Below are positions 34,566-37,371 of a DNA stretch of 64,000 nt, in pieces. The notes below the pieces were generated by a model. It had not been told where the DNA came from. It saw nothing but the letters and a program-made list of their open reading frames with translations, and searched no databases. The stretch comes from an uncultured Verrucomicrobiae bacterium (GTDB lineage: Bacteria > Chlamydiota > Chlamydiia > Chlamydiales > Rhabdochlamydiaceae): positions 288,001 through 352,000 of the forward strand of contig CAWFUG010000009.1 of the NCBI GenBank assembly GCA_963818965.1, in the 5' to 3' direction. Made by a program: the position numbers and the translations under genes. Within the stretch, counting starts at the first letter, position 1. Each line of letters starts with the position of its first letter.

Positions 34566-35777
34566 ATGAGCAAGAGAATGACAAAGTTTTTCCTGACTCT
34601 CACTGGTATCTTTGGATTGACACAAGTATTTGCTACAGACATCTTTCCTTTTTTCTTACAGCGCCAAGATGGAACTGTCTTGGAAGGCTATTTTTCTCCT
34701 CCGGGTACAATTGAAGCCCCGATTATTTTTGCGATTCAAGGTTCGTCTTGCGAGAGTGTTTTGGAGTGGCATAGGGATTTAAGTGATCAGGTGAGCTCCC
34801 TTGGTTTGGGGGTAATCGTTCTTGAAAAACAGGGGATTTCTGCGGAAGGTGTCAACTTACTCGCCTATAGCCAGACCAATTGTCTTCAAAATCGCCTTGA
34901 AGACTATATTGTGTGCCTTGAAAATGCGCATGTTATCTGTCCAGGATGGGAAGGGAAGCCCATTTTTTGGGGTGAATCTGAGGGGGGTATGCTAGCTGCT
35001 ACTTTGGCCGGCCAAACGCCGCAAACAACTGCTGTGTTGTTATTTGGTGCTGGAGGTGGCATGAAACCTCGAGAAGAGGTAAAATGGACGCTTCATCATC
35101 GCTTGGAGACACATGGAGCCTTGCAAGATGAGATTGATGAGTACATGAGTTTTTTGGATGAACAAATGGATGTTATGATCCTTGATCCTACTTCGGAAAA
35201 CCAATTTTTGGGGAATACATACAAATGGTGGGCTTCTTTTCTTGCTGCAGAAGGGGTTGCAATGCCTTTAAATCAACAATCTCTCCCCATTTATCTTGTC
35301 CATGGGGTTGAAGATAGTCAAATCCCTGTTCTCAGTGCCGATCTCGCCGCTGAGAGTTTAGCAAAGACGAATGCTCTTACCTACCTTCGTTTGGAAGGAT
35401 ATGGCCATAACTTGGATACTGCAGATGTTCAGGACGCGGCTAGTCATTGGCTGAGCTCCATTTTATTTGGGCAAGAGTTATCAAATGATGTCTTTGTAGC
35501 CCAGGCAGCTCCTTCCGCATTAACTTCGTCGGAGGATTGGAAAACGGATATTTCCCATTACATTTTGATTCGAGGAAAAGGAGAATACTATGCTGATGCG
35601 AAAGGGTATAAAGACACAGACGGAAACGAAAGTGCATCTGCTGGCGCTGGAGTTTCGAAGGAGTTTGATAATGGGGCTAGGGTTGATGTAAGGGGGGAAG
35701 CGAATGTCAAAAAGGACAGCAGTGGGAATACAAAAGGAGAAGTGAAGGTTGAAGGAAGGCTATCAAAAGGATTCTAA
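34566..35777 (+). CDS. Exported alpha/beta hydrolase with a C-terminal beta-strand tail
   Basis: Signal peptide ending QVFA; GESEGG nucleophile elbow, HGVEDSQIP, GYGH; ~70-aa alternating tail ending in Phe; AAGGAG RBS. Confidence 0.85.
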   Translation: MSKRMTKFFLTLTGIFGLTQVFATDIFPFFLQRQDGTVLEGYFSPPGTIEAPIIFAIQGSSCESVLEWHRDLSDQVSSLGLGVIVLEKQGISAEGVNLLAYSQTNCLQNRLEDYIVCLENAHVICPGWEGKPIFWGESEGGMLAATLAGQTPQTTAVLLFGAGGGMKPREEVKWTLHHRLETHGALQDEIDEYMSFLDEQMDVMILDPTSENQFLGNTYKWWASFLAAEGVAMPLNQQSLPIYLVHGVEDSQIPVLSADLAAESLAKTNALTYLRLEGYGHNLDTADVQDAASHWLSSILFGQELSNDVFVAQAAPSALTSSEDWKTDISHYILIRGKGEYYADAKGYKDTDGNESASAGAGVSKEFDNGARVDVRGEANVKKDSSGNTKGEVKVEGRLSKGF

Positions 35778-37371
35778 ATATTTAAAATATTTAGTCCTGT
35801 TATTTATAGGCGTTGTGTTGAGTATAGGGGTGCTGTTGTGGCGCCCCTTTTCCGCAGGCTATTATAGTTCTATTGCCGTTACCTTTGGCAGATACGATTA
35901 CCCCTTCATTGCAACCGAAATGCAAAATCAGAGTTCTGCATTGGCGGTTGATATTGGAGGCCGTTTTCCCTTGGCTTTACGCCGCGAAACGCTAGATGGA
36001 ATCCCTGATAAGCAACCTCACGGTACTATCACGGTGCACAACATCGAGGGTTTAAAACGTGAGGCTCCTTCTTATCTCATCCGAAAGCTGAAAGTTGGAG
36101 ATTTGACGTTGAAGAACGTGATCGCCCATGAATCACAGGAAGAGAGTTATGATGCCTTGGGACAGTTTTTGGGAGGAGAATTCAATCTTTTTATAGACTT
36201 TCCACATTCTCGCATCATCGCCTGTGATACTTTTTCCAAACTCCAGGAAAAAAAACTCGCTGGCAAACATTGGGTGCGTACTCCTTTTGAGATGCATTGT
36301 GGTGGTATTGTTCTCAATGTCGATACCGATTCTGGGACTCGTAGGTTTGCTATCAACACAACTTGTACCTTCTCCCACCTTCGTTCATCTCTTATTCCTT
36401 CCGGTCAAACCTCTATCTCATCCTCTTTTTCTCTGGAAGGGAAACGATTTGGCAATGTCGTGTTTCGATCCATCGATTTGCCAGAGGGTCTTAGTGGAAT
36501 TGATGGATTTATCGGTGTAGATTTCCTTAGAACTCATGTCATTTATATCGATTACAAGAGCAAAATTGCTTATATTGAGCCCCCCGAGACATATTATGAA
36601 CATATCCCTGTTACTTTTGTCAGTCGCGGCAGTCCCACCGTCAATGTATCTATCGAAGGAAATGTTTATCCTTTAGAAATTGACCTTGGTAGCTCCTTTC
36701 CTTTTTCTTTGCACCAGGAGATTTTGCAAAATATACATAAAACTTCTTACGGCACTGCCGAGTGGAGCGATTTTAGAGGGCAAAGATATGAATCCCCCGC
36801 CTATAAAATTCCTGAGGTCAAAATTGGTAACTTGGTGTTCATCAATCAGATTGCTACACAAAATAGAGATGATTTTCATATCAATGCTACATTAGAGGCA
36901 CCTGCTTCTCAACCTATAGGGGTCATTGGACTTCCCATTCTTGAAAAATATAATCTGTTCTTGGATTTCCCCCATTCTGCAATGTATGCTAGCAATGATT
37001 ATCAAACCCTCCAGCAAGCCGATCTTTTATCTCAAGATCTTCTTGCCATTCCCTTTACTCTTCATCCGGATGGCATTTTATTCTCTGTTGAAACAGATGC
37101 CGGCATTCATCGCTTTCTCCTTGATACAGGCTGTACGTCTACAGCTGTACGAGCGCCACATCAGGCCTATACAAAGAAATTTCGCATTATGGGTTATGAT
37201 TTTGGAGGGCGTTTCATTAGAGCCATTGATTTGAATCCTCGCTTTGAGTTTGATGGCATTTTGGGTATGGATTTCCTTCTCGAATATTCTTGCTTTATTG
37301 ACTATTCTAATAAGCTTCTTTTCATCGATCTTCAAAAAGATCTCGCAAAAACTCAGTTGTCTGAACTTTGA
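35749..37371 (+). CDS. Membrane-anchored aspartyl protease with four retropepsin-like domains
   Basis: N-terminal TM; VDIGG, INTTC, IDLGS, LDTGC with matching ALGQFL, GFIGVDFL, GVIGLPIL, GILGMDFL motifs. Confidence 0.82.
   Translation: MKEGYQKDSKYLKYLVLLFIGVVLSIGVLLWRPFSAGYYSSIAVTFGRYDYPFIATEMQNQSSALAVDIGGRFPLALRRETLDGIPDKQPHGTITVHNIEGLKREAPSYLIRKLKVGDLTLKNVIAHESQEESYDALGQFLGGEFNLFIDFPHSRIIACDTFSKLQEKKLAGKHWVRTPFEMHCGGIVLNVDTDSGTRRFAINTTCTFSHLRSSLIPSGQTSISSSFSLEGKRFGNVVFRSIDLPEGLSGIDGFIGVDFLRTHVIYIDYKSKIAYIEPPETYYEHIPVTFVSRGSPTVNVSIEGNVYPLEIDLGSSFPFSLHQEILQNIHKTSYGTAEWSDFRGQRYESPAYKIPEVKIGNLVFINQIATQNRDDFHINATLEAPASQPIGVIGLPILEKYNLFLDFPHSAMYASNDYQTLQQADLLSQDLLAIPFTLHPDGILFSVETDAGIHRFLLDTGCTSTAVRAPHQAYTKKFRIMGYDFGGRFIRAIDLNPRFEFDGILGMDFLLEYSCFIDYSNKLLFIDLQKDLAKTQLSEL

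Follow-up and report, generated by a model that had tools for sequence, protein, structure and literature searches.

Why does the gene for a putative secreted hydrolase run into the gene for an aspartic protease, and what does the short beta-stranded tail do with which the hydrolase ends? These questions are raised by a locus of an uncultured member of the Rhabdochlamydiaceae, located in a stretch of 64,000 nucleotides (assembly GCA_963818965.1, contig CAWFUG010000009.1, positions 288,001 to 352,000 of the forward strand), which we call the window. The first of the two genes, referred to as the cargo gene, encodes 403 amino acids (aa), and the second one, the protease gene, 540 aa. A first-pass annotation made from the letters alone had proposed that both form a two-gene system of an uncharacterised kind, with the tail as an outer-membrane anchor or pore peptide that the protease releases or matures. 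Here, we observe that the two-gene system holds far beyond the window, and that the tail rather than the hydrolase is coupled to the aspartyl protease. The tail is found on unrelated proteins of chlamydiae, and nearly every tail gene is directly followed by a protease gene of the same type.

The tail family and its linkage to a protease gene

The tail of the window hydrolase comprises 67 aa, which the AlphaFold2 (AF2) model arranges in four antiparallel strands (residues 340-349, 355-366, 371-383 and 389-401; model confidence, pLDDT, 63-84). This is in good agreement with the first-pass annotation, which had described about 70 residues with about four alternating strands, D-x-x-G turns and a terminal Phe. 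A profile built from 18 tails was searched against 1.84 billion proteins (cluster representatives) and matched 229 representatives at E<=1e-3, 51 of them at E<=1e-10; the tail is therefore not a product of chance. Column statistics over 143 sequences reveal a strict alternation of hydrophobic and polar residues in all four strands. One face is made of V, A, I, G, F and Y, with V, A, G and I as the main hydrophobic residues and little L, the other one of S, E, K and D. Two turns are of the D-x-[DE]-G-N type and one is [DE]-x-G (D-[TS]-[DE]-G-N, [DE]-x-G and D-x-x-G-N). The junction columns are rich in I, V and L and are followed by a Cys in 83 of 137 sequences. A lipobox around this Cys was considered and set aside: the preceding residue is L or F, and the Cys is limited to the fraction given.

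Among the 150 best matches, 139 carry the tail at most eight residues from the C-terminus. Of these 139 tails, 74 end in F and 38 in W (112 in total), with hydrophobic residues at positions -2, -4 and -6 before it. The C-terminus resembling a beta-signal, which the first-pass annotation had pointed out for the window protein, is thus a trait of the family. Six of the remaining best matches are long repetitive proteins, which we regard as false. Longer forms with anything fused behind the tail were not found, which is weak evidence by the search's own caveat.

Comparisons with known families gave little. In Pfam, the tail matched nothing at E<=1 except Gloverin (E 0.011), with YadA_anchor and the other outer-membrane protein (OMP) models among those without a match, and no NCBIfam model was found. 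A sequence search of the PDB yielded no relative below E 0.2, neither the window tail nor the small tail protein P0081 had relatives among the viral contigs, no PADLOC model matched a tail protein, and a profile-profile comparison of tail and protease revealed no relationship. The nearest named clusters according to a protein language model are attacin and gloverin, Gly-rich antibacterial proteins of insects, with scores of 0.87-0.91 that reflect few shared features and lie within the tool's stated chance range; unnamed viral clusters appeared as well, and all of these are taken as leads only. Judged by its sequence, the tail is a new domain family that lacks a Pfam or NCBIfam model.

The linkage to the protease is nearly obligate. 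In the fetched loci, 46 of 47 tail open reading frames (ORFs) have a retropepsin-like ORF directly downstream in the same orientation, with a gap of -134 to +71 bp, and the single tail ORF without a downstream protease is located 61 nt from the end of its contig. Double fetching of the same place accounts for four of the 47 rows, and three represent copies of a single repeat. In the reverse direction, 18 chlamydial protease loci had upstream DNA, and 16 of them carry a tail ORF ahead of the protease, compared to none of 20 distant protease-like loci outside the chlamydiae. The linkage spans five families with varied genomic contexts and varied cargos. Close relatives occur in Rhabdochlamydiaceae and other chlamydial metagenome-assembled genomes, and the cassettes are frequently present in several copies per genome.

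A sample of approximately 400 genomes of the phylum shows the same pattern. The tail profile is positive in 40 and the C-terminal protease unit in 87 of them; all 40 tail-positive genomes are also protease-positive, and all belong to the order of the window organism. In genomes that are positive for the protease and negative for the tail (15 loci), 12 of 17 first protease genes have an upstream ORF that matches the tail profile at E<1, seven of these at E<0.01, and most of the twelve are small MS[IV][ED] proteins with a second tail subtype (see below). Ten loci with small cargos were extended to 14 kb and have only the tail and protease genes in common, with no transporter and no conserved third gene. 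The similarity matrices of tails and partners are correlated over 40 cassettes (Mantel r 0.48, a value reached in 0 of 2000 permutations), which is equally expected from co-inheritance as a unit and fits all mechanisms discussed below.

The domains ahead of the tail vary strongly. Among 76 representatives scanned at E<=1e-3, nine carry an endonuclease/exonuclease/phosphatase (EEP) domain, four an alpha/beta hydrolase and 63 no known domain. A large cargo group consists of acidic proteins of 100-160 aa with the conserved N-terminus M-S-[IV]-[ED]-x-[IVL], many of which show a WNG[RH] motif about 30 residues into the sequence. None of the proteins in this set (loci L087-L104, L108-L117 and L162-L176; proteins P0072-P0151) has a signal peptide. 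The conservation of their N-terminus suggests an unrecognised signal or binding element. ORFs of 58-73 aa with little beyond a partial or whole tail were observed directly before the protease in L070 (4794-4970), L071 (4380-4565) and L099 (1498-1719); such ORFs may represent free tails or what is left of cargo genes after decay.

The genome of the window contains three further cassettes with an EEP cargo, a protein of 484 aa with a signal peptide and a tail of 57% identity. Here, the tail gene precedes two overlapping retropepsin-like genes, a predicted dead N-type unit and then a predicted active C-type unit. Two of the copies are inverted on a 22-kb contig and the third is located near a contig end; in one copy, the cargo ORF is shortened to 192 aa, with a TAG inside the tail match. 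The EEP copy of the window genome ends in the polar sequence ...FPIGGR. The second tail subtype (...WGGK[DN]G...GE[VI]HDDxGNY...[VR]QNxDG...GHKE...) is richer in Gly, Asp and His, also has a polar end (GHKE.../YEQN) and is weakly matched by the tail profile. It precedes more divergent pepsin-like genes and is carried by the three other protease loci of the window genome.

As far as the sequences tell, the cargo is exchangeable, since unrelated proteins carry the same tail. A real, strongly linked and family-wide two-gene system is strongly supported by these counts. The proposal that the tail might turn up on other passengers beside retropepsin genes, or free of any passenger, also stood: the passengers are unrelated to each other, and the ORFs of 58-73 aa represent nearly free tails. 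The genomic pattern shows a functional coupling of some kind between tail and protease, with an exchangeable cargo.

Anatomy of the window proteins and their surroundings

According to its sequence and model, the cargo of the window is an esterase/lipase-type alpha/beta hydrolase with a signal peptide. Its N-terminus, MSKRMTKFFLTLTGIFGLTQVFA followed by TD, represents a typical Sec signal, and the orthologs conserve K/R followed by a hydrophobic stretch. In an alignment of 16 orthologs, S138 and D250 are nearly invariant and H281 is invariant; the G-x-S-x-G nucleophile elbow, the two other triad residues (Asp and His) and the expected fold are all present. The Pfam scores stay below threshold (Hydrolase_4 with 19.7 bits versus 27, Peptidase_S9 with 19.3 versus 22.6), while the relatives P0047, P0068 and P0090 exceed the gathering score. 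With the AF2 model, built from the 16 orthologs at a mean pLDDT of 76.3, Foldseek retrieved PET46 (8b4u), a cinnamoyl esterase (3pf8) and human monoacylglycerol lipase at E ~1e-12. Ahead of strand 1 of the tail, the model contains a helix of low confidence (325-336), and the junction YILIR is a candidate site for recognition or cleavage by the protease. A paralog of 316 aa in the same window (61583-62533; 25% identity, E 2e-14) lacks the tail, because the alignment ends at query residue 310, and no protease gene follows it.

Table 1. Coordinates of the cassette in the window and of related loci.
Feature	Position	Strand	Basis
Cargo gene: predicted secreted alpha/beta hydrolase with C-terminal beta-tail, 403 aa	34566..35777	+	ORF, AF2 model, Foldseek
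Sec signal peptide, predicted, aa 1-23 (cut between ...TQVFA and TD)	34566..34634	+	sequence; helix 2-21 in model; putative cleavage site
Alpha/beta-hydrolase domain, aa 27-300	34644..35465	+	ortholog alignment, AF2 fold, Foldseek
Predicted triad: S138 (GESEGG); D250; H281	34977-34979; 35313-35315; 35406-35408	+	ortholog alignment
Flexible linker, aa 301-331	35466..35558	+	pLDDT <50 over 306-339; poorly conserved among orthologs
Hydrophobic junction YILIR, aa 332-336	35559..35573	+	family motif [IYV][IVL][LF][C/S][G/R/K]
Beta-tail, aa 337-403, four amphipathic strands, terminal Phe	35574..35774	+	AF2, family alignment
Shine-Dalgarno-like AAAGGAG	35733..35739	+	inside tail-coding region; 9-nt spacer to protease TTG
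Cognate protease gene: predicted membrane-anchored tandem pepsin-like protein, 540 aa, TTG start	35749..37371	+	ORF, Pfam, AF2, Foldseek
N-terminal hydrophobic anchor, aa 13-31	35785..35841	+	AF2 helix 2-36; N-in/C-out predicted
N-terminal bilobal unit, aa 37-280, DIGG and NTTC motifs, predicted dead	35857..36588	+	59-ortholog alignment
C-terminal bilobal unit, aa 281-532, predicted active; D312 (DLGS) at 36682-36684, D459 (DTGC) at 37123-37125	36589..37344	+	
EEP cassettes of the window genome	C4:1999-4992 (L015); C4:17864-20235, reverse (L017); C12:109102-112338 (L016)		
Second-subtype loci	window genome: C9:225k (L107), C3:28k (L105), C2:67k (L106); also L165, L167, L175		

The downstream protein exhibits an N-terminal helix (residues 2-36) and four beta-rich lobes in an AF2 model built from 59 orthologs (pLDDT 89.3). 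Pfam assigns residues 298-369 to Asp_protease_2 (PF13650) with 30.4 bits versus a cutoff of 24.3, and the same family is precomputed on most of 102 protease homologs. Foldseek matches plasmepsin II, chymosin, penicillopepsin and renin (E ~1e-10, TM-score ~0.55 of the target) as well as 9iy9, a Bacteroides 'putative endopeptidase'. Since these pepsins are bilobal, each pair of retropepsin-like lobes corresponds to one pepsin-like unit. A sequence search of the PDB gave marginal matches only (Ddi1 with E 0.08, and again 9iy9). The traits of clan AA aspartic peptidases, i.e., the profile, the pepsin/retropepsin fold and one catalytic Asp per lobe, were found, the latter in the C-terminal unit only.

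D312 and D459 are invariant in 59 of 59 orthologs, with D-L-G as the first catalytic motif instead of D-T/S-G. The N-terminal unit carries Asp at position 68 in 29 of 59 orthologs and at position 203 in none (Asn in 46). Judging from these residues, we regard the N-terminal unit as a dead pseudo-protease and predict activity for the C-terminal one. Free-standing units show the same pattern: both Asp are present in 28 of 31 unique C-type sequences, and all five N-type units lack both. Some cassettes contain two protease genes of which one copy lacks both Asp, the second in L064 (3705-5559) and the first in L072 (4216-6195); these gene pairs parallel the fusion of a dead and an active unit in the window. 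A hydrophobic 17-mer was detected in 99 of 101 unique N-termini of the protease family, and in 87 of these 99 the N-terminal flank is richer in K/R. This predicts an N-in/C-out topology with an anchor in the inner membrane and the lobes in the periplasm. Residues 494-522 of the protease match the PADLOC candidate PDC-M08B over 29 residues (E 2.7e-10), which probably reflects a shared C-terminal motif of retropepsins.

The two genes overlap by 29 bp, given the TTG start at 35749 with its upstream AAAGGAG. This TTG is the only ATG, GTG or TTG start that retains the hydrophobic N-terminal segment conserved among orthologs. The public gene call starts 22 codons downstream (518 aa) and would abolish the overlap. 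The protease gene is presumably translationally coupled to the cargo gene. Among orthologs, the overlap varies from -7 to -86 and a distance of +53 also occurs; a programmed frameshift that fuses both genes was therefore set aside. A scan for promoters and terminators performed no better than on shuffled sequences, and a look through the listed sequencing runs turned up no RNA data. The overlap, the membrane-anchored four-domain retropepsin and the tail-less paralog had all been named in the first-pass annotation, and none of them has to be revised.

Several observations concern the neighbourhood of the cassette. Directly behind it, an ATPase of 503 aa (37653-39164, + strand) matches PADLOC PDC-S27 (E 1.1e-84) and Pfam ATPase_2, and the G+C content is 0.42-0.43 over 34-38 kb compared to approximately 0.5 in the flanks. 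Both suggest an accessory island. Upstream, two small convergent ORFs overlap (33799-34143 on the + strand, 34102-34332 on the - strand), with PHROG matches to phrog_5119 (E 1.6e-18) and the toxin-annotated phrog_3445 (E 4e-5). Pfam contains no match for either of them; they may represent a toxin-antitoxin-like pair.

Possible roles of the tail

On the reading we prefer, the tail would be the cognate ligand of its protease, probably as a substrate tag. In the arrangement we favour, the hydrolase would be exported by Sec, and the pepsin-like protein of the next gene would specifically recognise its 67-aa beta-tail as a ligand. An inner-membrane anchor would hold this protein in place, with the lobes reaching into the periplasm. 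The dead N-terminal unit, or an exosite, would hold the tail, while the active C-terminal unit (D312/D459) would cut the flexible linker or the hydrophobic junction ahead of it. The cut would separate the esterase from its tail, either to mature or to release it. The anatomy of both proteins, the conserved dyad, the gene linkage and the exchange of cargos are observed, while we infer that tail and protease bind physically, that and where the tail is cut, in which compartment this happens and what becomes of the freed tail or cargo. A substrate tag is favoured because both proteins are predicted to be periplasmic, a linker and a hydrophobic junction precede the tail, the catalytic dyad is invariant and a dead unit is available for binding. 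Aspartic proteases favour cutting hydrophobic sequences like this junction. Altogether, we assign a probability of roughly 0.42 to the reading that the window locus is one copy of a conserved cassette of environmental chlamydiae (Rhabdochlamydiaceae and sister families), consisting of a cargo with a tail and a cognate protease, with the tail as the ligand of that protease and a cleavable tag.

Several facts weigh against this reading. About half of the cassettes outside the subfamily of the window have the small signal-less MS[IV][ED] cargos, and a cargo without a signal and a protease predicted to be periplasmic would reside in different compartments unless an unknown export route exists. The tail is strictly C-terminal and mostly ends with F or W; a cleavable tag needs neither, and such an end fits a signal for the beta-barrel assembly machinery (BAM) or a plug of the active site at least equally well. 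The Cys at the junction is present in just 83 of 137 sequences. Finally, there is one protease per tail gene, whereas sorting systems usually have one enzyme for many substrates, and a dedicated protease per substrate is unusual. The signal-less cargos, the strictly C-terminal aromatic tail and the one-to-one pairing keep the alternatives alive, in which the tail is an anchor, an inhibitor or tether, or a membrane-active peptide.

That the two genes are unrelated neighbours by chance is hardly credible, as 46 of 47 tail genes are followed by a protease gene in varied contexts, with varied cargos and in five families, and only about nine such protease ORFs exist in the 2.24 Mb genome of the window. 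Among the functional alternatives, the tail may be a cognate inhibitor or tether that binds the cleft, e.g., with its C-terminal aromatic residue in a hydrophobic pocket, and thereby silences the protease or holds the cargo. A tail gene that comes first, is presumably translationally coupled and is paired one-to-one with its protease would suit this role. So would the commonest form across the families, in which a small signal-less protein with only the tail conserved stands next to an exported or anchored protease, as in the staphostatin arrangement; the strict C-terminal position and the aromatic end agree with it as well, and the dead protease units of several cassettes could hold the tail without cutting. 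However, we see no obvious rationale for fusing an inhibitor to conserved enzymes with intact triads, the flexible linker and conserved hydrophobic junction resemble a cleavage site, and neither sequence nor profile comparisons linked the tail to known inhibitors. We consider this role doubtful. Quite improbable, in our estimate, is a tail that is itself the product, i.e., an amphipathic beta-peptide of about 65 aa that is released by the protease, forms a membrane pore and acts as a toxin, antimicrobial or suicide/defence effector, in analogy to the protease-activated gasdermins of bacteria. The tail is conserved while the N-terminal region is variable or minimal, and its two amphipathic hairpins, rich in Ser, Gly, Ala and Val, resemble the stems of beta-pore-forming toxins. 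The attacin and gloverin clusters and the Pfam Gloverin match are leads in this direction; the cassette is situated in a region of lowered G+C between a toxin-like pair of small ORFs and the PDC-S27 ATPase, and the protease shows the short PDC-M08B match. On the other hand, the cargo enzymes retain their catalytic residues, which argues that the cargos matter, the cluster scores do not leave the chance range, the PDC-M08B match spans just 29 residues, and PADLOC recognises no tail protein.

The tail may also be a BAM-dependent anchor in the outer membrane. Protomers of four strands each would then assemble into a YadA-type barrel, the passenger would be exposed or released, and the protease would mature the tail protein. 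The four strands of 10-13 residues with their strict alternation, the extreme C-terminal position with F or W preceded by alternating hydrophobic residues, the lack of fused forms behind the tail and the Sec signal of the window cargo favour such an anchor. The low-confidence helix before strand 1 is reminiscent of an autotransporter linker, and esterase passengers are known from classical autotransporters (EstA). Moreover, APRc of Rickettsia, a retropepsin-type protease, was reported to process autotransporters in vitro (PMC4140852). Against this stand the lack of a YadA_anchor or other OMP match in Pfam at E<=1 and of a PDB sequence relative, the many tail proteins without a signal peptide, and the polar ends of the EEP copy (...FPIGGR) and of the second subtype; the four C-terminal strands with an aromatic end are present as in YadA anchors, with polar endings in some members. 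Two further traits of YadA anchors, namely a coiled-coil stalk as passenger and a Sec signal throughout the family, were not found, the cargos being globular enzymes and many members signal-less. The hydrophobic face contains mostly V, A, G and I with little L, and a periplasmic protease anchored in the inner membrane, as predicted, would be on the wrong side to release a surface passenger. We hold this anchor to be unlikely. A broader version, in which the tail is a minimal self-contained membrane-insertion module that oligomerises into a beta-barrel after Sec or other export (a mini type-V-like anchor or exporter, or a pore), with assembly or release controlled by the cognate pepsin-like protease, seems rather doubtful to us.

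Whichever mechanism holds, the cassette is small and self-contained. Environmental chlamydiae have not been cultured or are difficult to handle, and little is known of how their enzymes that act on host membranes are exported and matured. Three things are defined here: a new C-terminal domain family, a new subfamily of tandem-lobed pepsin-like proteases, often with a dead extra unit, and a near-obligate one-to-one pairing of both. If the tail is a cleavable tag, as we favour, or a membrane-insertion unit, it would be a new type among the few C-terminal sorting signals known to have proteases of their own. If membrane insertion is true, the cassette would be an export or pore-forming system specific to environmental chlamydiae, built from parts that are not used in this way elsewhere.

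Comparison with known systems

The literature on retropepsin, aspartyl and pepsin-like proteases of chlamydiae and on PF13650 yielded no description of the cassette. Among known C-terminal modules, YadA-type anchors share about 70 C-terminal residues with four amphipathic strands and an aromatic end, together with the Sec signal that the window cargo also carries. The chlamydial tail differs in that it lacks a YadA_anchor match, is borne by globular cargos and includes members without a signal or without a terminal aromatic residue. Closer in organisation are LPXTG/sortase, PEP-CTERM/exosortase, GlyGly-CTERM/rhombosortase and the C-terminal domain of the type IX secretion system with PorU, where a short C-terminal module occurs on unrelated cargos and tracks one protease family. 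There, a single enzyme acts on many scattered substrates, and a transmembrane helix is part of most signals. The chlamydial cassette, in contrast, has a one-to-one pairing, a beta-meander with a hydrophilic face and a pepsin-like aspartic protease.

Operons of proteases and their inhibitors, such as staphopain-staphostatin and AprA-Inh, and PI-3 of Ascaris, a beta-sheet pepsin inhibitor, resemble the cassette in having one small beta-rich protein per protease, co-transcription, and a cytoplasmic signal-less partner of an exported protease. No sequence relationship to them was found, and the chlamydial beta-module is also fused to exported enzymes. Shewasins are reportedly bacterial pepsin homologues. 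The Rlo proteins of Pseudomonas aeruginosa were described as secreted retropepsin-like proteases (PMC12239564). Both share with the chlamydial proteins an extracytoplasmic location and the pepsin or retropepsin fold; an upstream tail partner is not described for them, and the chlamydial proteases have tandem lobes, often with an extra dead unit.

APRc (RC1339) of Rickettsia is a membrane-embedded retropepsin-like protease that cleaves the autotransporters OmpB and OmpA in vitro (PMC4140852); for the cleavage of autotransporters in vivo, RapL was subsequently put forward as the peptidase (PMC10414592). The likeness is considerable: APRc, too, is a membrane-attached clan AA protease of an obligate intracellular Gram-negative bacterium, and its proposed substrates have a C-terminal beta-domain. 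APRc has a single retropepsin domain that dimerises, is not encoded beside its substrates and acts on substrates with 12-strand barrels, whereas the chlamydial proteins have two or four lobes fused as pepsin-like units, a protease gene for each candidate substrate and a four-strand module. In the literature covered, APRc, RapL and Rlo represent the nearest published bacterial systems of the retropepsin type. The pairing of tail and protease resembles known tag-plus-protease systems and differs from them in every component.

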